Positions 2,696 to 48,242 of a DNA stretch of 64,000 nucleotides are shown piece by piece; the stretch's first letter is position 1; each line of letters opens with the position of its first letter. The stretch comes from Escherichia coli (GTDB taxonomy: Bacteria > Pseudomonadota > Gammaproteobacteria > Enterobacterales > Enterobacteriaceae), in NCBI RefSeq assembly GCF_048403405.1, contig NZ_CP183129.1; one strand, 5' to 3'. Both the position numbers and the translations under genes were made by a program. The notes below the pieces were generated by a model. The model was given only the letters and a program-made list of their open reading frames with translations. It had not been told where the DNA came from and ran no database searches.

Positions 2696-3589
2696 ATGAA
2701 TATTGAACTTCGTCATCTGCGTTACTTTGTTGCGGTTGCAGAAGAGCTGCATTTCGGGCGCGCCGCTGCCCGCCTGAATATTTCGCAACCACCGCTAAGT
2801 CAACAGATTCAGGCGCTGGAGCAACAAATTGGTGCCCGACTGCTGGCACGGACCAATCGCAGTGTATTGCTGACGGCAGCAGGAAAACAGTTTCTTGTAG
2901 ATAGTCGGCAAATCCTGTCTATGGTGGATGATGCTGCCGCTCGCGCTGAAAGACTGCATCAGGGTGAAGCGGGGGAGTTGCGCATTGGTTTTACTTCGTC
3001 CGCTCCTTTTATTCGGGCGGTGTCCGATACGTTATCGCTGTTTCGCCGTGATTATCCCGATGTCCATTTACAAACCCGCGAAATGAACACTCGCGAGCAA
3101 ATCGCTCCGCTCATTGAAGGAACGCTGGATATGGGATTGCTGCGTAACACAGCGTTACCGGAGACGCTTGAACACGCAGTCATCGTCCATGAACCGCTTA
3201 TGGCGATGATCCCGCACGATCATCCCCTGGCAAATAACCCGAGTGTAACGCTGGCTGAACTGGCGAAAGAACCCTTTGTCTTTTTTGATCCGCACGTAGG
3301 GACAGGGCTGTATGACGATATTCTCGGGCTGATGCGACGTTACAATTTGACGCCCGTCATCACTCAGGAGGTGGGTGAGGCAATGACCATCATCGGTCTG
3401 GTTTCCGCTGGTCTGGGTGTTTCAATTTTGCCTGCGTCATTTAAACGTGTTCAGCTCAACGAAATGCGCTGGGTGCCGATTGCTGAAGAGGATGCGGTTT
3501 CTGAAATGTGGTTGGTCTGGCCGAAACACCATGAACAAAGTCCGGCTGCGCGTAACTTTCGTATTCATCTGCTGAATGCTCTCAGGTGA
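2696..3589 (+). CDS. ynfL: LysR-family transcriptional regulator
   Basis: N-terminal HTH MNIELRHLRYFVAVAEELHFGRAAARLNISQPPLSQQIQALE is the canonical LysR signature; divergent from ynfM. Confidence 0.88.
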   Translation: MNIELRHLRYFVAVAEELHFGRAAARLNISQPPLSQQIQALEQQIGARLLARTNRSVLLTAAGKQFLVDSRQILSMVDDAAARAERLHQGEAGELRIGFTSSAPFIRAVSDTLSLFRRDYPDVHLQTREMNTREQIAPLIEGTLDMGLLRNTALPETLEHAVIVHEPLMAMIPHDHPLANNPSVTLAELAKEPFVFFDPHVGTGLYDDILGLMRRYNLTPVITQEVGEAMTIIGLVSAGLGVSILPASFKRVQLNEMRWVPIAEEDAVSEMWLVWPKHHEQSPAARNFRIHLLNALR

Positions 3590-3723
3590 GGGAAATTTCA
3601 GCGAAAAAGCCCGAAAAATGTGCTGTTAATCACATGCCTAAGTAAAAATTTGACGACACGTATTGAAGTGCTTCACCATAGCCTACAGATTATTTCGGAG
3701 CGCGAAAATATAGGGAGTATGCG

Positions 3724-4944
3724 GTGGTTGCTGAAAATCAGCCTGGGCACATTGATCAAATAAAGCAGACCAACGCGGGCGCGGTTTATCGCCTGATTGA
3801 TCAGCTTGGTCCAGTCTCGCGTATCGATCTTTCCCGTCTGGCGCAGCTGGCTCCTGCCAGTATCACTAAAATTGTCCGTGAGATGCTCGAAGCACACCTG
3901 GTGCAAGAGCTGGAAATCAAAGAAGCGGGGAACCGTGGCCGTCCGGCAGTGGGGCTGGTGGTTGAAACTGAAGCCTGGCACTATCTTTCTCTGCGCATTA
4001 GTCGCGGGGAGATTTTCCTTGCTTTGCGCGATCTGAGCAGCAAACTGGTAGTGGAGGAGTCGCAGGAACTGGCGTTAAAAGATGATTCGCCATTGCTGGA
4101 TCGTATCATTTCCCATATCGATCAGTTTTTTATCCGCCACCAGAAAAAACTTGAGCGTCTGACTTCGATTGCCATTACCTTGCCGGGAATTATTGATACG
4201 GAAAATGGTATTGTACATCGCATGCCGTTCTACGAGGATGTAAAAGAGATGCCGCTCGGCGAGGCGCTGGAGCAGCATACCGGCGTACCGGTTTATATTC
4301 AGCATGATATCAGCGCATGGACGATGGCTGAGGCCTTGTTTGGTGCCTCACGCGGGGCGCGCGATGTGATTCAGGTAGTTATCGATCACAACGTGGGGGC
4401 GGGCGTCATTACCGATGGTCATCTGCTACACGCAGGCAGCAGTAGCCTCGTGGAAATAGGTCACACGCAGGTCGACCCGTATGGGAAACGCTGTTATTGC
4501 GGGAATCACGGCTGCCTCGAAACCATCGCCAGTGTGGACAGTATTCTTGAGCTGGCACAGCTGCGTCTTAATCAATCCATGAGCTCGATGTTACATGGAC
4601 AGCCGTTAACCGTGGACTCATTGTGTCAGGCGGCATTGCGCGGCGATCTACTGGCAAAAGACATCATTACCGGGGTGGGCGCGCATGTCGGGCGCATTCT
4701 TGCCATCATGGTGAATTTATTTAACCCACAAAAAATACTGATTGGCTCACCGTTAAGTAAAGCGGCAGATATCCTCTTCCCGGTCATCTCGGACAGCATC
4801 CGTCAGCAGGCCCTTCCTGCGTATAGTCAGCACATTAGCGTTGAGAGTACTCAGTTTTCTAACCAGGGCACGATGGCAGGCGCTGCGCTGGTAAAAGACG
4901 CGATGTATAACGGTTCTTTGTTGATTCGTCTGTTGCAGGGTTAA
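3724..4944 (+). CDS. mlc: ROK-family global repressor Mlc (DgsA)
   Basis: 406 aa; N-terminal winged-helix domain and ROK sugar-kinase-like core with the Zn motif CYCGNHGCLE. Confidence 0.9.
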   Translation: MVAENQPGHIDQIKQTNAGAVYRLIDQLGPVSRIDLSRLAQLAPASITKIVREMLEAHLVQELEIKEAGNRGRPAVGLVVETEAWHYLSLRISRGEIFLALRDLSSKLVVEESQELALKDDSPLLDRIISHIDQFFIRHQKKLERLTSIAITLPGIIDTENGIVHRMPFYEDVKEMPLGEALEQHTGVPVYIQHDISAWTMAEALFGASRGARDVIQVVIDHNVGAGVITDGHLLHAGSSSLVEIGHTQVDPYGKRCYCGNHGCLETIASVDSILELAQLRLNQSMSSMLHGQPLTVDSLCQAALRGDLLAKDIITGVGAHVGRILAIMVNLFNPQKILIGSPLSKAADILFPVISDSIRQQALPAYSQHISVESTQFSNQGTMAGAALVKDAMYNGSLLIRLLQG

Positions 4945-33404: not shown

Positions 33405-33589
33405 CGGGATAAACATTGGCAGTTGAAGGTCCACGCGAACCATTTATCCGGCAAAATTCCACGCGTAATCCTGTGGTAATTTCTTCTGCATCTCGAAGAT
33501 TGAGAGCTGAAACGTGAAGCTGGGCATCGATACGCCATCGGATGGGAATATAAGACCTTTGCTGCTTTTGTAGTCAAAGTTTTTGACAA
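33405..33589 (-). pseudogene. degraded cold-shock protein gene (cspF-like remnant)
   Basis: Minus-strand frame encodes ...[42 protein letters not shown] (Csp C-terminal half) but the N-terminus is in another frame and no stop follows the expected end. Confidence 0.5.
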
Positions 33590-33909
33590 TTCCTGTCATT
33601 TTAGGGGACAGAAAAACTCCTTAATACTGATAACCTGGTGCACCATACACACGTTCCTGGAGAAAACTACTTTTTTGATAGGGTTGAAGGTGGCTGGATG
33701 TCTAAAATAAACATTGCTTCATATGTTCAACTATGAGTTAATGACTGCGTCGGTTTGAAGAACAGACGATATACGAAGTAGTTTACTAAAGCAGTTCTCA
33801 TTTCAGGTGTTATTCACTTATTCCTTCTTTGAGTCTCTCCAATTAAGTACGAAGTCGTTTCTGTTATGCAAACCATTTATGCCGAAAGGCTCAAGTTAAG
33901 GAATGTAGA

Positions 33910-34125
33910 ATGTCAAATAAAATGACTGGTTTAGTAAAATGGTTTAACGCTGATAAAGGTTTCGGCTTTATTTCTCCTGTTGATGGTAGTAAAGATGTGT
34001 TTGTGCATTTTTCTGCGATTCAGAATGATAATTATCGAACCTTATTTGAAGGTCAAAAGGTTACCTTCTCTATAGAGAGTGGTGCTAAAGGTCCTGCAGC
34101 AGCAAATGTCATCATTACTGATTAA
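33910..34125 (+). CDS. cspB: cold-shock protein (CspA family)
   Basis: 71 aa, [38 protein letters not shown]... with RNP1/RNP2 motifs; long 5' leader typical of csp genes. Confidence 0.8.
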
Positions 34126-34878: not shown

Positions 34879-35094
34879 ATGAAATCAATGGATAAGTTAA
34901 CAACAGGTGTTGCCTATGGCACATCGGCGGGTAATGCTGGTTTCTGGGCATTGCAGTTACTCGATAAAGTAACTCCGTCACAGTGGGCTGCAATCGGTGT
35001 GCTGGGTAGCCTGGTTTTTGGCCTGCTGACGTATCTGACAAATCTTTATTTCAAGATTAAAGAAGACAGGCGTAAGGCTGCGAGAGGAGAGTAA
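34879..35094 (+). CDS. essQ: class II pinholin (phage 21 S-like) with dual-start motif
   Basis: [71 protein letters not shown]; two TM helices; Met1/Met4 dual start. Confidence 0.85.
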
Positions 35095-35098
35095 TCCA

Positions 35099-35650
35099 AT
35101 GACTCAAGACTATGAACTGGTTGTGAAAGGAGTCCGTAATTTTGAGAATAAAGTTACGGTAACTGTAGCCTTACGGGACAAAAAACACTTTGACGGTGAA
35201 ATTTTTGACCTGGACATCTCGCTGGACCGTGTTGAAGGTGCCGCGCTGGAGTTTTATGAGGCAGCAGCCAGAAGGAGCATCAGACAGGTCTTCCTGGATG
35301 TTGCTGCCGGGTTATGTGAAGGGGATGAGCAGTCGCCGGAAAAGCGCCCCATAATTTTAGAGGCGCAGAATGTGTGGATAACCTACAAAGGAAAGCTACC
35401 GGGAAGAATTACTGGTTCTCTGAAGACGCCACCGACGGCATTGCGGTCAGAAAAAGATGATATTGAATCGCCCATTGAAAAACTGGAGGGCAGCGTCGCT
35501 GATCTGAATAAAAAATTGTCGGTGCTGATTCCTTCTGAAGATGAAAAAAAACGCCGCGATGAGCAGTTTGCGGCGTTTTACGATTATTGCATTGAAGTTA
35601 CTCGCAGGAATTTTGTGAAGATTTTTGAGGAGGGTAAATCTCTTCAGTAA
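35099..35650 (+). CDS. hypothetical protein inserted between holin and endolysin
   Basis: 183-aa ORF with GAGGAG RBS directly after the holin stop; no recognisable motif. Confidence 0.55.
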   Translation: MTQDYELVVKGVRNFENKVTVTVALRDKKHFDGEIFDLDISLDRVEGAALEFYEAAARRSIRQVFLDVAAGLCEGDEQSPEKRPIILEAQNVWITYKGKLPGRITGSLKTPPTALRSEKDDIESPIEKLEGSVADLNKKLSVLIPSEDEKKRRDEQFAAFYDYCIEVTRRNFVKIFEEGKSLQ

Positions 35651-35858
35651 GCTTATTGGCGGACGCTGCAATTAATTCAGGAAGGTCCGCAAGGTCATCT
35701 GTCAGTGGATATGATGAAAAATCGGCGGCAGTTCTGTTAAGAAGCGCTTTAACTAATTCCTTTTCCTTCTCCGGCAACAAGTTGATTAGAGCTACGACTG
35801 CTTGCCTGAGTGCGATTAAATCAGCAAAAGTTTGTTTAGGTAGATTTGTGTAATCCAT
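35598..35858 (-). CDS. hypothetical protein, convergent to the lysis operon
   Basis: 86-aa ORF with GAGG RBS 8 nt upstream of its ATG; helical, acidic; overlaps the previous gene's 3' end by 53 nt. Confidence 0.45.
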   Translation of the reverse strand: MDYTNLPKQTFADLIALRQAVVALINLLPEKEKELVKALLNRTAADFSSYPLTDDLADLPELIAASANKLTEEIYPPQKSSQNSCE

Positions 35859-35971
35859 AGTCGCCTCTGTGTTTATCAGATTGACATCCTCCTCCCGCCA
35901 GTGCCCATCACTGGTGAGGTAAGATTTAACATATCCGGGGATTTGAAGCCGATAAATCCTGATAAATATCC

Positions 35972-36999
<1,028 letters not shown>

Positions 37000-37362
37000 A
37001 TTAATATTAAATCGGATTATTTTTAGCGCTGAATGTGAAATTTAAATAAAAAGGACTCTTCCATGAGTCAAAATCCTTGAAATCTTAAGGGTAAGATAAA
37101 AGGTCATTAGACAGAATGACACGTTTTATTAATAAATAAAGCTATTGTTTCATTCGTGTGTTTTTCTTTACAAAAGTAATCCTTGCTATGGTTGGTTAAT
37201 CATGCGTTAATGGTGTTCTGGTTTGTTACAAAATTATCTGAAGCAGTCATTGTTATAATTTTATTATTTGTACCTCTTGAGATTTCCTTGTTGGTTTTTC
37301 TCTCTGATATTTTTTTTCGGACCATTCTGCCCAAGGGCTAACTTCTTCAAAAGGTAATAATG

Positions 37363-37575
37363 ATGTCTAACAAAATGACTGGTTTAGTGAAATGGTTTAA
37401 CCCTGAAAAAGGTTTTGGTTTCATCACGCCGAAAGATGGTAGCAAAGATGTGTTTGTCCATTTCTCAGCTATTCAGAGCAACGATTTCAAAACGTTAACT
37501 GAGAATCAGGAAGTCGAATTTGGTATTGAGAACGGACCTAAAGGCCCCGCGGCTGTTCATGTTGTGGCACTTTGA
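37363..37575 (+). CDS. cold-shock protein (CspA family; cspI-like position after the lysis cassette)
   Basis: [45 protein letters not shown]... Confidence 0.8.
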
Positions 37576-37779
37576 GGTAGATAATATTACAAACCATATT
37601 CACTTTAGATGCCCGTGTTGCCATGGTTCTCAGTATAGAACATCATCTTTTGATGTTTCTGACAGGAATCCTTTCGGGGCAAAATGTATCTTTTGTAAAT
37701 CAATGATGATTACATTTGATAATATTTCACAATACTTAAATGTTAGCCGTCTATCGTTAGATTTAAGAAAGTGAAAATG

Positions 37780-37804
37780 AAGGCTCCTTCGGGAGCTTTT
37801 TTTC
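37780..37804 (+). terminator. intrinsic terminator
   Basis: AAGGCTCC-TTCG-GGAGCTT followed by TTTTTTT. Confidence 0.65.
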
Positions 37805-37846
37805 TTAGTGTCTAGTCGATGGATACTCACATAATACGGTAACATT

Positions 37847-38077
37847 ATGAAAAAAATAATAGTTTTTTTTAACTCTGAACCAGCAATGGTAGTGCCAGTG
37901 ATGACCGGAGTTAACACCATCATGCGTGAATATCCAAATGGCGAAACAACACACCTCACTGTAATGGCTGCAGGGTTTCCATCTCTGACCGGAGATCATA
38001 AAATCATTTATGTAGCAGCGGATCGACATGTAACTTCAGAAGAAATTCTGGAAGCAGCAATGAGACTCTTGAATTGA
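37847..38077 (+). CDS. hypothetical protein (moron region)
   Basis: 76-aa ORF in an AT-rich region between csp and gnsB. Confidence 0.45.
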   Translation: MKKIIVFFNSEPAMVVPVMTGVNTIMREYPNGETTHLTVMAAGFPSLTGDHKIIYVAADRHVTSEEILEAAMRLLN

Positions 38078-38249
38078 TTTGATTCTAATGCATTGATAAT
38101 AAATGATAATCATCTTTATCTGTTTGTGTGAAATTTAGACCGTCGTATGTTGATTATTGCGATGTTTCATCTTATCTTTTATACGTTTGCTCCATATAAT
38201 TGACACTACTGTGTACCAGGAAAGTCATAACAGACTAAAAGAGGAAATG

Positions 38250-38423
38250 ATGAACATTGAAGAGTTAAAAACAAAAACAGAAGCAGATATTTCTGAATAT
38301 ATAACAAAAAAAATCATTGAGCTTAAGAAAAAGACCGGGAAAGAAGTTACCAGTATCCAGTTTACTGCACGGGAAAAAATGACTGGTCTTGAAAGCTATG
38401 ATATCAAGATTGATTTAATCTAG
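38250..38423 (+). CDS. gnsB: GnsA/GnsB-family protein
   Basis: 57 aa, MNIEELKTKTEADISEYITKKIIELKKKTGKEVTSIQFTAREKMTGLESYDIKIDLI; RBS AAAGAGGAAA. Confidence 0.7.
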   Translation: MNIEELKTKTEADISEYITKKIIELKKKTGKEVTSIQFTAREKMTGLESYDIKIDLI

Positions 38424-38716
38424 TCTGTTTAGTATTAGCATCAATTTCTCATCAGATGCTATTCAACAATACAAATTACCCATAAACCTCGTTTTTACGG
38501 GGTTTTGTTATATTTAAACATTACCGAATAGGTATAAATCTCGATTGTCGATGGTATTGGTTGTGTGACAATACCTAGTCTTTCCGGTATGCCTGATGAG
38601 AATACAAACGACAGATTATGTAAGGGAAACGCGCTGAATCTTTAACTCTTTCATGCTGAGTGATTTGACGTTATATTTTTAGCCGTAAGTGAAGAGCAAA
38701 CGCATGGAGCGACAAA

Positions 38717-38923
38717 ATGCATAAAGATCAATACACTGATGCCCCCTCCCAGGAGCAGGTTCGTGTAAAAACTATGCTTAATAGCACCATTTCGATGGGT
38801 TACCCGGATGTTGTAATTGCATGTATAGAACATCAAGTGTCTCTGGAAGCATTCAGGGCAATTGAGGCCGCGTTAGTAAAGCACGATAAGAATACGAAGG
38901 ATTATTCCCTGGTGGTTGACTGA
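38717..38923 (+). CDS. hypothetical protein
   Basis: 68-aa ORF; weak support. Confidence 0.3.
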
Positions 38924-39284
38924 TCACCATAACTGCTAACCATTCTGACCATTTCACAAGTGACAGAGTCAATATCGTATTCTGTCACTGTCAGGCTAAT
39001 ACAGCAATGCAATTCAACTACAGCAATGCCTCGTATTTAGGTGAATTTACAATATCGTCCAGTTCGGATGCCGGCTGCATTTCTGAAGATAAGGCATTTC
39101 GGTTCTCGTATTTTCCCCTCATGCTCGTCAGTCCTGCGCGTAGTAAGAAACAGGACACTCACACTAATTTGTGTGGGCATGCTGTGATGTCCTTCTGAAT
39201 TATCCCCATGCCATTATGTAAAGCTCTGTTAAAGATGCTCGTCACGGTTGTCAGGCTGTCGGGTCCTCCCAGTGGGGGGCCCTG

Positions 39285-39310
39285 CCACGGGGCGGGAGCG
39301 TCGCGGAAAA
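39285..39310. other. candidate cos site (cosN-like) upstream of the terminase genes
   Basis: ACGGGGCGGGAGCGTCGCGG closely resembles the lambda cosN region ACGGGGCGGCGACCTCGCGG as I recall it; about 180 bp upstream of the small terminase gene. Confidence 0.55.
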
Positions 39311-39485
39311 AGGCTAGTTTTTGCATTTCCATGGCGGCGGCAGCATGTTTGGTAATTTATTGATAATTAAAAGTTATTTCCCTTTTCACCTGTACAATAT
39401 TTTTTTCTTCCTGTCATTAGACCAGTTTGCAATTAATTGAAATATATAAATAAACCTGATTTTCACCTGCCAGATGGAGTTGCTT

Positions 39486-40013
39486 ATGTCAAATGTGAGC
39501 GGGATCGGTGATGCTTATTACTGGAGTGTTTTTAAAATCGCCGAGGCCTTTGGGCTTCACCGGGACACAGTAAAAAAACGGCTCCTCGCGGCCAACACTC
39601 CTGTGGCTGCGACTGTCAGGGGGAACCCCGTTTACGCCCTGCAGCATGTCGGGCCCGCCCTGTTTAGTGTGAAGCATGAGGCAGCAGACTCTGTTCATGA
39701 TCCATCCCGTATGGAGCCGAAAGAGAGAAAGGACTGGTACCAGTCTGAAAATGAAAGGATCAAGCTGGAAAAGGAGCAGCGAAAACTCATCCCAGTTGAT
39801 GAAGTAGTCATCGTCTATTCGTCCATGAGAAAGGCTGTCGTCCAGGTTCTGGAGACAATTCCGGATGTTCTTGAACGCGATTGCGCTCTGACTCCTCAGG
39901 CCGTCGGCGTTGTACAGCAGGCCATTGATGACCTGCGATACACTCTTCAGGAAAAATCCTACGAGGCTTGTGCTGCTGAATTAATTCCTGATGAGGAAGG
40001 AGAGAGTCTCTAG
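39486..40013 (+). CDS. terminase small subunit (Nu1-like)
   Basis: N-terminal winged-HTH SVFKIAEAFGLHRDTVKKRL; immediately upstream of the large terminase. Confidence 0.75.
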   Translation: MSNVSGIGDAYYWSVFKIAEAFGLHRDTVKKRLLAANTPVAATVRGNPVYALQHVGPALFSVKHEAADSVHDPSRMEPKERKDWYQSENERIKLEKEQRKLIPVDEVVIVYSSMRKAVVQVLETIPDVLERDCALTPQAVGVVQQAIDDLRYTLQEKSYEACAAELIPDEEGESL

Positions 40014-40021
40014 GAGGAATA

Positions 40022-42121
40022 ATGGGTTTTTCATCAGCCCGAAATTTGGGAAGGGACATATCGGCAGGATTTTCCCCACCACGTCGCATGCCGATTTCGG
40101 AGGCTGTTAAAAAATTCATGCGTGTTCCCAAGGGGGCTGGTAACTCGGTGCCATGGGATCCTGAACTGACACCCTACATCATTGAGCCCATGAACTGCCT
40201 GGCATCGCGTGAATACGATGCGGTGATTTTTGTTGGTCCTGCGCGAACAGGGAAGACCATTGGTCTGATCGATGGATGGATTGTCTATACCATCGTTTGC
40301 GATCCTTCGGACATGCTCGTTGTGCAGATGACCGAAGATAAGGCCCGCGAGCATTCTAAAAAGCGCCTCGACAGAACGTTCAGAAGCAGTGCGGCGGTAA
40401 AGAAAAGAATGAGTCCACGTCGTAACGACAATAATGTCCATGATAAGACGTTCAGGGATGGCTCGTTCCTTAAAATTGGTTGGCCCTCGGTCAACATTAT
40501 GTCGTCGTCGGATTACCGGTTTGTCGCCTTAACCGATTACGACCGTTTTCCGGAGAATATCGACAGCGAGGGTGATGGTTTCTCCCTGGCCTCAAAACGT
40601 ACCACCACATTTATGTCCGCCGGGATGACTCTGGTGGAGAGCTCGCCGGGACGTGACATCTGCGACAGCAAATGGCGACGTAAGTCGCCTCATGAAGCGC
40701 CACCGACGACTGGTATTCTTTCCCTTTACAATCGTGGTGACCGCCGCCGCTGGTACTGGCCATGTCCGCACTGCGGTGAATATTTTCAGCCAGCTATGGA
40801 TGCCATGACCGGCTACCGTAATGAACCGGATCCCTTTAAAGCCAGTGAGGCGGCGTATCTACTTTGCCCGCACTGCAGCGGCATTATCACTGCGGAGAAA
40901 AAGCGTGAGCTCAATAGTGCAGGAGTCTGGTTGCGTGAAGGTCAGGTCATTGATCGTAACGGCAACGTTTCCGGTGAACCGCGCCGCTCCCGTATCGCCA
41001 GTTTCTGGATGGAAGGGCCAGCTGCTGCGTATCAGACCTGGGCGCAACTGGTTTACAAATTACTGACTGCAGAACAGGAGTATGAAGCGACAGGAAGCGA
41101 AGAAACACTCAGGGCGGTTATCAACACCGACTGGGGATTGCCTTATCTTCCTCGTGCCAGCATGGAGCAACGAAAAAGTGAACTGCTTGAGCAGCGGGCA
41201 GAGCCAGTTCCTTCCTGCAGTGTGCCGGATGGCGTTAATTTCCTTGTGGCGACAGTGGATGTGCAGGCGGGACGTCATCGCCGTTTTGTGGTTCAGGTAA
41301 CTGGCTATGGCAGTCGTGGCGAACGCTGGATTATTGATCGTTACAATATCACGCAGTCATTGCGCAGTGACTGCGACGGGGAGAGCCAGCGAATTGATCC
41401 GGCCAGCTATCCGGAAGACTGGGATGTCCTGCTGACGGATGTTTTTCATAAAAGCTGGCCGCTGGCCTCCGATCCTTCTCAACAAATGCGACTGATGGCA
41501 ATGGCGGTGGACTCCGGCGGTGAAGACGGGGTCACTGATAATGCCTATAAATTCTGGCGTCGTTGCCGTCGTGATGGCCTTGGTAAACGTATTTACCTGT
41601 TTAAGGGCGACAGCATCCGGCGCGCAAAACTGATCACCCGTACATTCCCTGATAACACCGGACGAACGGGCCGACGGGCGCAGGCCGCAGGTGATGTGCC
41701 GCTCTGGCTTCTTCAGACGGATGCACTGAAAGACCGGGTGAATAACGCGTTATGGCGTGACTCGCCAGGTCCCGGCTATGTGCATTTCCCTGACTGGCTG
41801 GGGAGCTGGTTTTACGACGAACTGACGTATGAAGAGCGGAGCAGTGACGGGAAATGGAGTAAGCCGGGTCGCGGTGCCAACGAAGCTTTTGACCTGATGG
41901 TGTATGCCGAGGCTCTGGTCATTCTGCATGGATACGAAAAGATCCGCTGGCCGGATGCACCGGAGTGGGCGAGCCGGGAAACCTGGCTGGAGTGTGTCCC
42001 GGACAGTACCGAACCGTCACCCTCACCGGAACCGGTATCCACGCCTGTTAAAAAACAAAAACGGAAGAAAACAGTAACTGACGATGTTAACCCCTGGCTG
42101 ACTTCCGGAGGATGGTTATGA
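40022..42121 (+). CDS. terminase large subunit (GpA-like)
   Basis: 699 aa; Walker A VIFVGPARTGKT; AGGAGG RBS. Confidence 0.88.
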   Translation: MGFSSARNLGRDISAGFSPPRRMPISEAVKKFMRVPKGAGNSVPWDPELTPYIIEPMNCLASREYDAVIFVGPARTGKTIGLIDGWIVYTIVCDPSDMLVVQMTEDKAREHSKKRLDRTFRSSAAVKKRMSPRRNDNNVHDKTFRDGSFLKIGWPSVNIMSSSDYRFVALTDYDRFPENIDSEGDGFSLASKRTTTFMSAGMTLVESSPGRDICDSKWRRKSPHEAPPTTGILSLYNRGDRRRWYWPCPHCGEYFQPAMDAMTGYRNEPDPFKASEAAYLLCPHCSGIITAEKKRELNSAGVWLREGQVIDRNGNVSGEPRRSRIASFWMEGPAAAYQTWAQLVYKLLTAEQEYEATGSEETLRAVINTDWGLPYLPRASMEQRKSELLEQRAEPVPSCSVPDGVNFLVATVDVQAGRHRRFVVQVTGYGSRGERWIIDRYNITQSLRSDCDGESQRIDPASYPEDWDVLLTDVFHKSWPLASDPSQQMRLMAMAVDSGGEDGVTDNAYKFWRRCRRDGLGKRIYLFKGDSIRRAKLITRTFPDNTGRTGRRAQAAGDVPLWLLQTDALKDRVNNALWRDSPGPGYVHFPDWLGSWFYDELTYEERSSDGKWSKPGRGANEAFDLMVYAEALVILHGYEKIRWPDAPEWASRETWLECVPDSTEPSPSPEPVSTPVKKQKRKKTVTDDVNPWLTSGGWL

Positions 42122-47498: not shown

Positions 47499-48242
47499 AT
47501 GACCACACCAAATCCACTGGCAAAGACGAAAGGTGCGGGGACGACGTTCTGGATGTATACCGGCAACGGCGATGCGTTTGCGAACCCTTTGTCGGACACT
47601 GACTGGCTGCGTCTTGCGATGGTGAAGGATCTGCAACCTGGCGAAATGACCGCTGATGCAGAAGATGACACTTATCTCGATGATGAAGATGCAGACTGGA
47701 AAACGACAACCCAGGGGCAGAAATCCGTTGGTGATACTTCGGCGACGCTGGCCTGGCGTCCGGGTGACAGCGGGCAGAAAAAACTGGTTCAGTTGTTCGA
47801 CTCCGGTGAAGTCTGCGCGTTTCGTATCAAATATCCCAACGGCACTGTTGATGTTTTCCGTGGCTGGCTGAGCTCACTGGGTAAAACCATTGCCTCAAAA
47901 GACGTGATGACCCGCACTGTGAAAATCAGCGGTGTGGGGCGTCCGTATCTGGCAGAGGAAGGCACTGAAACCGTGAGCGTTACCGGGCTGACAGTATCAC
48001 CGGCGTCTGCCAGTGTAAAAGTGGGAGCAACCACCACGCTGACCTTTACAGTAAAACCTGACGGAGCCAGTGACAAAGCGATCAGTGTGCATTCGTCAGA
48101 TCCACAGACTGCCACGGTTACCCTGAACGGACTTGTGGCCACGGTAAAAGGCGTGAAGCAGGGCAGTGTCAGCATTGTGGGCATGACCGCTGACGGGAAT
48201 TTTGTGGCTGTGACTGCGGTGACTGTCAGCGCAGCAGGTTAA
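47499..48242 (+). CDS. major tail protein (gpV-like) with C-terminal Ig-like domain
   Basis: MTTPNPLAKTKGAGTTFWMYTGNGDAFANPLSDTDW...; C-terminal Big_2-like region. Confidence 0.88.
   Translation: MTTPNPLAKTKGAGTTFWMYTGNGDAFANPLSDTDWLRLAMVKDLQPGEMTADAEDDTYLDDEDADWKTTTQGQKSVGDTSATLAWRPGDSGQKKLVQLFDSGEVCAFRIKYPNGTVDVFRGWLSSLGKTIASKDVMTRTVKISGVGRPYLAEEGTETVSVTGLTVSPASASVKVGATTTLTFTVKPDGASDKAISVHSSDPQTATVTLNGLVATVKGVKQGSVSIVGMTADGNFVAVTAVTVSAAG

Follow-up and report, generated by a model that had tools for sequence, protein, structure and literature searches.

Gene content of the slot between Rz and cos

What are the small genes that sit in AT-rich DNA between the lysis genes and the cohesive-end site of an Escherichia coli lambdoid prophage, and do they serve the bacterium, the phage or neither? 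At the locus considered here (positions 37800–39000 of the window, i.e., the whole 64,000-nucleotide stretch of DNA that was analyzed) there are three such accessory genes, all catalogued before, found at this place in numerous lambda-like prophages of E. coli and in that sense ordinary: ynfN (37847–38077), gnsB (38250–38423) and a 68-codon lambda-type gene (38717–38923). A first-pass annotation had described them as small ORFs in AT-rich DNA placed between Rz/csp and cos, and on these counts it was accurate: all three are on the + strand, they follow Rz (36502–36999) and cspI and precede a lambda-like cosN (39290–39301), and the GC content of 37800–39000 is 37.1%, versus 49.1% for the whole window, 49.2% for R–Rz and 53.5% for the terminase genes. 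A GC content this low is seen in merely ~3–5% of 1.2-kb segments. The true extent of the low-GC block is 37000–38716, with 34.8% GC.

Taking the term moron in the sense of Hendrix and Juhala, i.e., an autonomous accessory unit inside a phage operon, we find both that the base composition of the slot departs from that of the flanking phage genes, as the above figures show, and that the gene content between Rz and cos varies by presence and absence among lambda, Tritos, the K-12 Qin prophage, Citrobacter prophages and the window. The proposal of a moron cluster in a typical cargo location is thus upheld as far as cargo goes; it is not borne out as regards self-contained units, each ended by terminators of its own. 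On the + strand two intrinsic terminators were recovered (37779–37800 and 38484–38505) for four or five genes, and the promoter candidates described below were read by eye, none having passed a consensus scan, which on the + strand returned no promoter for ynfN, gnsB or the 68-codon gene. An Rfam scan of 35000–41000 at E-values up to 1 returned the cspA thermoregulator alone and no hidden RNA genes, and the repeats in 36900–39600 are nothing more than short chance-level matches.

We consider it very probable that the slot is composed of two parts, namely the distal half of a cold-shock cassette carried by the phage, which is a paralogue of the chromosomal cspG-ymcF-ymcE-gnsA locus, and a separate, lambda-conserved YbcW-family gene by cos, with expression from their own promoters in the lysogen. 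As part of the same explanation, and with the same high confidence, the region is the Rz–cos cargo slot of a lambdoid prophage of the Qin/Tritos/mEp460 type integrated beside rspB. The closest known arrangement in K-12 is that of Qin, with the order rzpQ–cspI–ynfQ–ynfR–ynfN–gnsB–(ydfO, ynfO)–nohA. The window has the same gene order and orientation after Rz, the same terminators and the same site beside rspB, and its proteins are 100% (CspI), 93% (GnsB) and ~91% (YnfN) identical to those of Qin. Unlike in Qin, ynfN is intact at 76 aa, the K-12 copy having lost one T of a T8 run to give a 51-aa product; ynfR has 12 codons; ydfO and ynfO are absent; a YbcW-type 68-aa gene precedes cos; and cos, terminase, head and tail genes are present, whereas K-12 has the tail-fiber genes stfQ and tfaQ directly after nohA. 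Ecol_316 is 99.5% identical solely over 34851–58051 (holin to tail gene J) and mosaic elsewhere, and was rejected as a map of the whole window on account of this limited match.

A cold-shock cassette ending in ynfN and gnsB

A cold-shock cassette begins at ~37183; ynfN and gnsB form its distal part, and the 68-aa gene is outside it. The earlier grouping of the three ORFs is sound as cargo but misplaced in extent, with the cassette beginning ~600 bp upstream of the cluster as drawn and the 68-aa gene being a separate entity. The order is: a candidate cspA-type promoter, a thermoregulator leader, cspI, ymcF/ynfQ, a terminator, ynfN and gnsB. The candidate promoter for cspI (37183–37211, + strand), as read from the sequence, has a −35 element TTGCTA (37183–37188), a 17-nt spacer and a −10 element TGcGTTAAT (37203–37211). 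Its region shares the block ATCATGCGTTAAT with the region upstream of K-12 cspG; it presumably resembles the cspA promoter and would give a leader of ~145 nt. It is followed by a cspA-type thermoregulator mRNA element on the + strand that takes in the 5′ leader and the cspI coding region (37205–37621), and that scores 112.8 bits with the full-length Rfam model RF01766, for which the gathering score is 78 (E 4e-29). In the Citrobacter and L011 loci, too, this element lies ahead of csp. The cassette opens with the gene cspI (37363–37575, +), which codes for a cold-shock-domain RNA chaperone (PF00313, E 2e-31, also given as 1.7e-31; PGAP), so that leader and gene together make up a cspA-type cold-shock unit. 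Next comes a gene for a ymcF/ynfQ-type small cold-shock protein of 62 aa with a CxxC…CxxC pattern (37586–37774, +; PF23641 YmcF-like, E 1.5e-32; PGAP), whose dN/dS is 0.14 versus Citrobacter. This ORF is annotated with an ATT start codon.

The cspI-ymcF unit is closed, upstream of ynfN, by the intrinsic terminator at 37779–37800 (+), which has a 9-bp stem, a UUCG loop and a T7 run (−14 kcal/mol, z −2.4). Its Citrobacter counterpart has other stem letters with the pairing kept (GGCCCC/GGGGCC versus GGCTCC/GGGAGC), and these paired changes indicate that the hairpin is conserved. The terminator nevertheless appears to be leaky. Over it lies a remnant of ynfR (37777–37815, +), flagged as “too short” by PGAP, with 12 codons in place of the 21 of K-12 following a TAT to TAG change; the small ORF is absent from Citrobacter. 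In K-12, where translation of YnfR runs across the hairpin, the protein is induced by cold shock (PMC6001520).

The K-12 chromosomal cspG-ymcF-ymcE-gnsA locus is paralogous to the phage cassette, with nucleotide-level homology that extends over the leader, csp, ymcF and gns, the corresponding proteins CspG, YmcF and GnsA being 79%, 68% and 63% identical. On the chromosome ymcE overlaps both of its neighbors, and its 5′ portion corresponds, in translated form, to the terminator/ynfR stretch; “YmcE” and “YnfR” are both translations of the terminator hairpin region. At the position of ymcE the phage cassette has ynfN and a 172-nt spacer with promoter-like elements of its own. Viewed in this way, the cassette is a textbook instance of a phage whose cargo duplicates a stress operon of the host, and there is little to be drawn from it beyond correct annotation.

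YnfN, a conserved component downstream of the terminator

The first-pass annotation had left the 76-aa ORF and the 68-aa ORF unnamed; names are available for both (YnfN in PGAP; YbcW/phrog_657). The full-length 76-aa YnfN (+ strand; PGAP “protein YnfN”) matches phrog_3425 end to end (E 2e-55, residues 1–76 of 76). An exhaustive HMMER search with YnfN of 1.84 billion representatives yielded 35 clusters of proteins of ~75 aa, full-length down to 37% identity, which form a small self-contained family without a link to any larger one. Across the family T48, G49, D50, H51, D59 and R60 are invariant (the TGDH and DR motifs), the N-terminal MKKxIVFFN is near-invariant, and MKKxIVFFNS is kept down to 37–59% identity. 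An AF2 model (pLDDT 88) has five strands and a C-terminal helix. Neither YnfN nor the 68-aa protein has a match in Pfam, NCBIfam or PADLOC, both fall in “unknown function” families of PHROGs, a PDB sequence search gave nothing significant for either and their structure models offer no functional lead. We take both to be genuine small proteins of the cytoplasm. The 51-aa YnfN of the K-12 reference, in turn, is the conserved 76-aa protein cut short by a frameshift.

One could regard these ORFs as decaying junk, i.e., remnants of old insertions that hitch-hike with the prophage. Parts of the slot do decay, as seen in the 12-codon ynfR, the frameshifted ynfN of K-12 and the presence or absence of ybcV, and YnfN and the 68-aa protein have no known biochemical function. 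Yet all three genes are under purifying selection, with dN/dS of 0.11 (ynfN), 0.07 (gnsB) and 0.17–0.41 (the 68-aa gene) at synonymous divergences of up to ~1–1.4; full-length YnfN is retained down to the lowest identities found, the AF2 models of both small proteins are confident and the Tritos lysogen has transcripts of the homologues. Between them, selection and expression already largely refute the junk reading, which we hold to be extremely unlikely. They bear equally on the two ways in which the first-pass annotation had thought its proposal might fail: the ORFs are conserved, with dN/dS in the range just given, and, to the extent that the Tritos homologues are a guide, they would also be expressed.

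The position of ynfN invites a more specific proposal. In each of the three loci examined it comes after a csp-ymcF unit, and one of these loci is outside prophage lysis modules. YnfN might be the dedicated distal member of a cold-shock operon that is carried by the phage and gates itself: ynfN mRNA would form solely through read-through of the 37779–37800 hairpin, possibly aided by an antiterminator activity of the Csp encoded upstream, such that CspI would set the dose of a cold or stress effector. We regard this as doubtful; if true, YnfN would be an effector of a novel type.

GnsB and the question of a toxin–antitoxin pair

The 57-aa product of gnsB (+ strand) matches PF08178 over profile positions 1–54 of 54 (E 2e-33, 114.4 bits versus a cutoff of 27) and phrog_2301 (E 2e-39), and it is related over residues 1–56 to the solved structure of GnsA (PDB 4XO2_A, E 7.9e-20). 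A preprint that cites Sugai 2001 (bioRxiv 10.1101/2024.03.27.586906) relates that overexpression of K-12 gnsA or gnsB raises unsaturated fatty acids and suppresses the defects of secG-null and fabA6 mutants, that plasmids with either gene rescue a low-temperature growth defect, and that 16:1 and 18:1 fatty acids return when gnsA is expressed; chromosomal GnsA and GnsB thus share an overexpression phenotype. The phenotypes of GnsB are known from overexpression only, and both Pfam and PGAP label the protein a “toxin”.

This label raises the possibility that ynfN-gnsB is a toxin–antitoxin pair serving addiction or abortive infection, with GnsB as the toxin and YnfN as the antitoxin, in the place that YmcE has by GnsA. 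“GnsA/GnsB toxin” is the title of PF08178, and in PGAP gnsB appears as an “addiction module toxin”; ymcE-gnsA is among the listed E. coli type II systems (PMC8484670), gnsB overexpression increases persisters and lowers ATP (bioRxiv 10.1101/310961), and ynfN is directly upstream of gnsB in Citrobacter too. However, YnfN and YmcE differ entirely in sequence and are not related, and it is with the terminator/ynfR stretch, not with ynfN, that the region of ymcE aligns. Typical toxin–antitoxin genes overlap or are tightly coupled, whereas here the 172-nt spacer is AT-rich and carries promoter-like elements. In LF82 the gnsB mRNA is 5–60-fold above that of ynfN and has a different condition profile, the opposite of what a protective antitoxin would need; K-12 has a frameshifted ynfN beside an intact gnsB and comes to no harm; homologues of YnfN also occur with csp and ymcF where gnsB is absent; and PADLOC has no match at the locus. 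We therefore hold a pairing of this kind to be very unlikely. A type II module of the GnsA–YmcE kind was likewise rejected, as no YmcE homologue adjoins gnsB and the mRNA of the supposed antitoxin is not at the level such a module calls for.

Returning to the cold-shock cassette, gnsB probably has a promoter of its own. From the sequence and alignments, two candidates can be proposed on the + strand within 38150–38200: TTGATT-17-TATCTT (38150–38178), which is kept in Citrobacter, and a perfect TATAAT (38195–38200), which is seen in E. coli only. The gene is followed by an intrinsic terminator (38484–38505, +) with a 9-bp stem and a T-run (−11 kcal/mol) that is unchanged in K-12, Tritos and HannyBb. 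By contrast, no stable structure is present on the 3′ side of ynfN (z +0.54).

The cos-proximal gene and the packaging end

The third gene (+ strand, 44% GC and thus above the cassette) is a separate, lambda-conserved cos-proximal gene. Its product matches phrog_657 over residues 1–68 of 68 (E 4.6e-48), just upstream of cos, and is 79% identical to the product of an unannotated lambda ORF (47738–47944) and 81% to Tritos YbcW, both at the syntenic position; at the nucleotide level there is 83% identity to lambda 47629–48090. The N-terminus is variable and dN/dS is 0.17 over codons 18–68, and an AF2 model (pLDDT 79) has three helices. Its 3′ side bears a hairpin without a T-run (38959–38989, +; −16.4 kcal/mol, z −3.2), whose stem GTGACAGAG/(C)TCTGTCAC is retained in lambda and Tritos while the loop differs.

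The resemblance to the right end of lambda thus comprises the Rz–cos slot itself, which is the classic moron slot, this gene, the downstream hairpin and the cosN architecture. The lambda slot shares only this gene, lambda being without csp, ymcF, ynfN and gnsB; its order is Rz–bor–unannotated ORF–cos, with bor on the opposite strand. The 12-nt cohesive-end sequence GGGCGGGAGCGT probably lies at 39290–39301, as judged by the lambda-like context ACG|GGGCGGGAGCGT|CGCGG and by the linear Tritos genome, which terminates exactly at the equivalent of 39289. The corresponding lambda context is ACG|GGGCGGCGACCT|CGCGG, and the two cohesive ends differ at 4 of 12 positions. The packaging genes differ as well: in place of Nu1/A of lambda there is a DUF1441 protein at the small-terminase position (39486–40013, +; PF07278, E 2e-44; PGAP), followed by a 699-aa large terminase, TerL (40022–42121, +; PGAP).

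Tritos, from the AIEC strain LF82 (PMC9928086), has 91.6% nucleotide identity across the slot and the same cos end. Unlike the window, it has ybcV (DUF1398) on the opposite strand between gnsB and ybcW, and it has a sequence that matches the FNR site reported for K-12 ybcW; ybcV is present in K-12 as well. In the window this site and the PdhR site of K-12 are both absent because ybcV and its spacer are missing, and for that reason we rejected the idea that FNR and PdhR control the gene here as they do in K-12. The promoter regions being different, expression of the Tritos ybcW type may not apply here.

Expression in the lysogen and the likely beneficiary

In the LF82 Tritos lysogen cspI, gnsB and ybcW are transcribed as autonomous morons while the flanking late genes are silent (PMC9928086). 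In the RNA-seq values of its S1 Table, given as log2(fpkm+5) with genes assigned by coordinates, cspI is at 9–12.7, gnsB at 7.6–12.3, ybcW at 4.7–10 and ynfN at 4.8–8.4, and Rz, endolysin and terminase at 2.3–4.5. There ynfN stays ~3–4.5 log2 units under cspI and peaks together with it, and the profiles of gnsB and ybcW differ. The independence of gnsB from cspI and ynfN in LF82 points to a gnsB promoter of its own, and cspI, ynfQ and ynfN of K-12 are co-regulated in two data sets (PMC7406224; PMC11228462), which show transcription from the resident Qin prophage as well. A published moron table attributes the strong gnsB signal to ynfN.

Based on these precedents, the following scheme can be proposed. 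In the lysogen the late promoter would be off and the cargo genes would rely on promoters of their own: cspI-ymcF would be turned on via the thermoswitch in its mRNA by cold and by other stresses that affect translation or DNA, some few per cent of its transcripts might pass the hairpin to give ynfN mRNA, and gnsB and the 68-aa gene would respond to independent promoters at the positions proposed. The two terminators would hold this transcription off cos and the head genes, and in lytic growth Q-modified RNA polymerase would presumably pass them as in the lambda late operon. CspI would melt RNA structure and raised GnsB would shift membrane phospholipids toward unsaturated fatty acids, with the likely net effect of better host fitness in cold or stress, and possibly better late expression of the phage.

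It is also conceivable that the genes serve the phage itself, as late-operon passengers transcribed mainly from pR′ after induction. CspI and YmcF would then tune host translation, GnsB the membranes or the 68-aa protein packaging at cos, and lysis would improve in timing or yield, especially in the cold. All of them are co-oriented with the late operon from Rz to cos, the 68-aa gene and its hairpin are kept beside cos in lambda, the cassette travels with functional phages (HannyBb, mEp460 as mEp460_ev081, 2H10 and Tritos), and GnsB affects membrane lipids, the membrane being the substrate of holin and spanin, which may link it to lysis. However, the homologues are strongly transcribed in an uninduced lysogen with silent late genes around them; the cassette, except for the frameshifted ynfN, is retained in the defective Qin of K-12, which makes no phage, and responds to host stresses; and the variability of the slot among similar phages implies that none of its genes is essential for lytic growth. 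While we consider such a role quite unlikely as the explanation of the locus, it is compatible with that of a host-directed cassette, and both may hold.

Beyond this prophage, 37000–39500 is 100% identical in nucleotide sequence to several E. coli chromosomes annotated with cspI/ymcF/ynfN/gnsB, and a match is present in 3359 of the 5426 complete E. coli genomes. The cassette is thus in more than half of these, and its cold- and stress-related genes cspI and gnsB are a widespread supplement to the physiology of E. coli that is acquired horizontally. In Citrobacter prophages csp-ymcF-ynfN-gnsB lies between Rz and a different (Nu1/GpA) terminase, and the 68-aa gene is absent.

A cold-shock cassette between the lysis and packaging genes

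The three small + strand ORFs described in the first-pass annotation are present in both the six-frame ORF list and the raw sequence: a 76-aa ORF (37847-38077), a 57-aa gene (38250-38423) nested in a longer TTG-started mechanical ORF, and a 68-aa ORF (38717-38923). Upstream lie genes for a lysozyme (35972-36505), an Rz-type DUF2514 protein (36502-36999), a cold-shock-domain protein (cspI, 37363-37575) and a 62-aa CxxC protein (ymcF/ynfQ, 37586-37774); downstream come a DUF1441 gene and one for a large terminase of 699 aa. The position claimed for the ORFs, after Rz/csp and before cos, and their low GC are likewise borne out: GC is 37.1% in 37800-39000 and 34.8% in 37000-38716 against 49.1% in the whole window, is higher in the flanks (R-Rz, 49.2%; terminase genes, 53.5%), and among 1.2-kb windows 37800-39000 falls in the bottom few per cent by GC. 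At 39287-39306 the sequence reads ACG-GGGCGGGAGCGT-CGCGG, a layout agreeing with that of lambda cosN, and the linear genome record of Tritos, a phage/prophage of the AIEC strain LF82, ends exactly at the equivalent of 39289; hence, the probable cohesive end is placed at 39290-39301. The prophage adjoins rspB, the Qin site.

The 57-aa protein is GnsB (PF08178, 114 bits against a cutoff of 27; E 8e-20 to the GnsA crystal structure 4XO2), with 93% identity to K-12 GnsB and 63% to GnsA. The 76-aa protein is YnfN, matching phrog_3425 end to end (E 2e-55) and bearing the PGAP name "protein YnfN". The 68-aa protein is a member of phrog_657 (E 5e-48), 81% identical to the product of the Tritos gene annotated YbcW and 79% to that of a lambda ORF (47738-47944) unannotated in the classic lambda record; the DNA of 38601-39068 shares 83% identity with lambda 47629-48090. 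The 1336 database "homologues" of the 68-aa protein are mostly copies of the lambda ORF full of errors, from ~3.5-kb contigs of ENA assemblies (P0085-P0172), which look like lambda control DNA from sequencing runs; they therefore inflate the apparent family size and add little real diversity. Several E. coli chromosomes carry the 2.5 kb of 37000-39500 at 100% identity, the phages HannyBb, mEp460_ev081 and 2H10 at 98-99% and Tritos at 91.6%, and the stretch is matched in 3359 of 5426 complete E. coli genomes (with at least 80% of the stretch covered in 1035 of those).

Our analysis indicates that the unit extends beyond the interval originally flagged (37800-39000): a full-length Rfam cspA thermoregulator spans 37205-37621, scoring 112.8 bits where the gathering threshold is 78, and the cassette runs leader, cspI, ymcF/ynfQ, hairpin terminator, ynfN, 172-nt spacer, gnsB, terminator. 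The cryptic prophage Qin of K-12 has the same gene order (rzpQ-cspI-ynfQ-ynfR-ynfN-gnsB), and the K-12 chromosomal operon cspG-ymcF-ymcE-gnsA is alignable to the cassette at the nucleotide level. Citrobacter prophages carry the same cassette (CSD, YmcF-like, 76-aa YnfN, GnsAB) between Rz and a Nu1/GpA terminase, which differs from that of the window. On a metagenome contig beside icd (L011), the gene for a YnfN of 59% identity is preceded by a cspA-type leader, a CSD gene and a YmcF-like ORF; a second paralogue, 37% identical, lies upstream, while lysis genes and gnsB are absent. Because csp-ymcF-ynfN occurs there without gnsB, ynfN is linked more tightly to the csp-ymcF unit than to gnsB. The two YnfN-family genes flank the cspA-leader-csp-ymcF unit (L011 2971-4228), and an STnc100 sRNA match lies at 1661-1835.

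The 68-aa gene is an entity separate from the cassette: its GC (44%) is above that of the cassette, it is common to lambda and it is missing in the Citrobacter version. Between the gnsB terminator and this gene, Tritos (3520-4100) and the window (38506-38600) differ by an indel comprising ybcV (DUF1398, opposite strand); a short sequence bordering ybcV on both sides in Tritos persists as one hybrid copy in the window. All genes of the slot already have annotations and catalogue entries, K-12 Qin and several sequenced phages share the arrangement, and transcription of the homologues in a lysogen is already published; the observation is genuine but ordinary.

Terminators and reading frames

A consensus scan of 36900-39600 returned five terminator-like sites against 1.5 expected, only two of the five on the + strand. 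The first (37779-37800; 9-bp stem, UUCG loop, T7 run, -14 kcal/mol) sits between ymcF/ynfQ and ynfN, and thus upstream of the latter; in Citrobacter the hairpin is kept with a different stem sequence and preserved pairing. The second (38484-38505; 9-bp stem, T-run, -11 kcal/mol) comes after gnsB. The proposal that each small ORF has its own terminators consequently lacks support: no stable structure was found in the 3′ flank of ynfN (z +0.54), and the hairpin 3′ of the 68-aa ORF (38959-38989; -16.4 kcal/mol, z -3.2) is without a T-run. The latter hairpin is common to the window, Tritos and lambda (about 47980-48010), with the stem GTGACAGAG/(C)TCTGTCAC and a variable loop, and may stabilise RNA, mark a processing site or bind a protein near cos.

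The ORFs are conserved, with pairwise Nei-Gojobori dN/dS of 0.07-0.41: 0.07 for gnsB and 0.11 for ynfN (dS 1.4) against Citrobacter, and, for the 68-aa gene against lambda, 0.41 overall and 0.17 over codons 18-68, codons 1-17 being essentially without constraint. YnfN residues 1-25 (MKKxIVFFNS...) are kept in homologues as low as 37-59% identity. The 51-aa YnfN of K-12 results from the loss of one T from a T8 run (37863-37870, ynfN codons 6-8), the resulting T7 (Qin locus L004, 3455-3690) frameshifting these 25 conserved codons. The native form is the 76-aa one, the K-12 reference protein being truncated. Tritos ynfN has an intact T8, yet is annotated in the 51-aa form.

The ynfR ORF starts two bases ahead of the 37779-37800 hairpin and continues through it; the window holds a 12-codon remnant overlapping it (37777-37815, TAT to TAG), and Citrobacter is without ynfR. 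The K-12 ymcE region aligns to this terminator/ynfR stretch, and the 5′ part of ymcE (L005, the cspG locus, 2348-2578; …RLPRGAFF…) is the translated homologous hairpin. Since these ORFs overlie the hairpin, with ynfR cut here and absent in Citrobacter, it is doubtful whether YmcE and YnfR are proteins under selection, and they may instead be read-through by-products. The annotated start of ymcF/ynfQ is ATT (37586-37588), 8 nt after a GAGG overlapping the cspI stop codon, as it also is in K-12 ymcF; in a cold-shock gene, a start codon this unusual hints at control through IF3.

Expression of the homologues

RNA-seq of LF82, which carries Tritos, provides transcript levels in log2(fpkm+5) (PMC9928086 S1 Table), mapped by LF82 coordinate = 1655117 minus Tritos coordinate. 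The gene labels in Table 1 and S1 of that paper are off by one gene, as judged from coordinates and lengths against Tritos 2921-4490 (window equivalents 37847-38923): LF82_0907 (174 nt), labelled "YnfN, 27-fold above background", is gnsB, as the paper's S4 table says, while LF82_3578 (156 nt) is ynfN, LF82_2579 ybcV and LF82_2580 ybcW, the last also so named in S4 (PMC9928086). With these assignments, the lysogen transcriptome suggested as a check in the first-pass annotation is available for this close relative: cspI ranges over 9.0-12.7, gnsB (174 nt) 7.6-12.3, ybcW (207 nt) 4.7-10.0 and ynfN (156 nt) 4.8-8.4, against 2.8-5.2 for ybcV (426 nt, opposite strand) and 2.3-4.5 for Rz, endolysin and terminases (PMC9928086).

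Transcripts of ynfN lie about 3-4.5 log2 units under those of cspI and peak with them at 1 h in macrophages (PMC9928086), as expected if a few per cent of transcription passes the 37779-37800 terminator. Levels of gnsB are highest at 6 h in DMEM, and those of ybcW rise in DMEM and macrophages (PMC9928086), differing profiles that argue for separate promoters. The FNR and PdhR sites reported for K-12 ybcW are located in the ybcV-ybcW spacer; in the window these sites are absent, as are ybcV and the spacer, and the LF82-type conditional expression of ybcW may therefore not apply here. In K-12, cspI, ynfQ and ynfN rise 6.5-, 5.9- and 5.8-fold after AZT and depend on SspA by 38-, 42- and 51-fold (PMC11228462), and ynfN and cspI levels track together in long-term stationary phase (PMC7406224). 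YnfR is cold-shock induced (PMC6001520), which requires transcripts reading through the hairpin.

Predicted functions and regulation

Expression of gnsA brings back 16:1 and 18:1 fatty acids, gnsB gives the same unsaturated-fatty-acid rise (Sugai 2001, as cited there), both suppress secG-null and fabA6 defects, and either gene on a plasmid lets a (p)ppGpp-deficient fadR mutant grow at low temperature (bioRxiv 10.1101/2024.03.27.586906); a preprint reports raised persister levels (bioRxiv 10.1101/310961). The published GnsB phenotypes are from overexpression. The "toxin" label of the Gns family derives from a proposed GnsA-YmcE pair (PMC8484670). We reject such a toxin-antitoxin role for this locus: it has no YmcE, YnfN is unrelated to YmcE and 172 nt off gnsB, and ynfN is expressed far below gnsB in LF82 (PMC9928086).

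Pfam, NCBIfam, PADLOC and PDB sequence searches yielded no function for YnfN or the 68-aa protein; the AF2 model of the latter is three-helical (pLDDT 79), with generic helical structural matches only. By its genomic linkage and co-regulation, YnfN probably belongs to the cold-shock and stress response; we consider it improbable that YnfN, whose fold lacks neighbours, acts as an effector gated by Csp within a phage-borne cold-shock operon.

A cspA-type promoter would drive the cassette in the lysogen; its candidate, TTGCTA-17-TGcGTTAAT (37183-37211, by inferred position), gives a ~145-nt leader. A promoter of its own within 38150-38200 would serve gnsB, with the candidates TTGATT-17-TATCTT, kept in Citrobacter, and a perfect TATAAT, kept in E. 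coli; a third, putative promoter would serve the 68-aa gene. Both terminators would halt lysogen transcription ahead of cos, and, by analogy with established lambda biology, Q-antiterminated polymerase from pR′ would pass them after induction. The host most likely gains fitness in cold or stress, and expression of phage genes at low temperature may benefit too.

Another AT-rich cold-shock island (33444-34125) precedes the holin: its cspB-like gene (33910-34125) is intact and encodes 71 aa with 72% identity to CspI, and its cspF-like ORF (33444-33599, minus strand) is truncated. K-12 Qin shares this arrangement, whereas the E. coli strain Ecol_316, otherwise near-identical, matches the window (99.5%) only from 34851 to 58051 and has other genes at the equivalent position.
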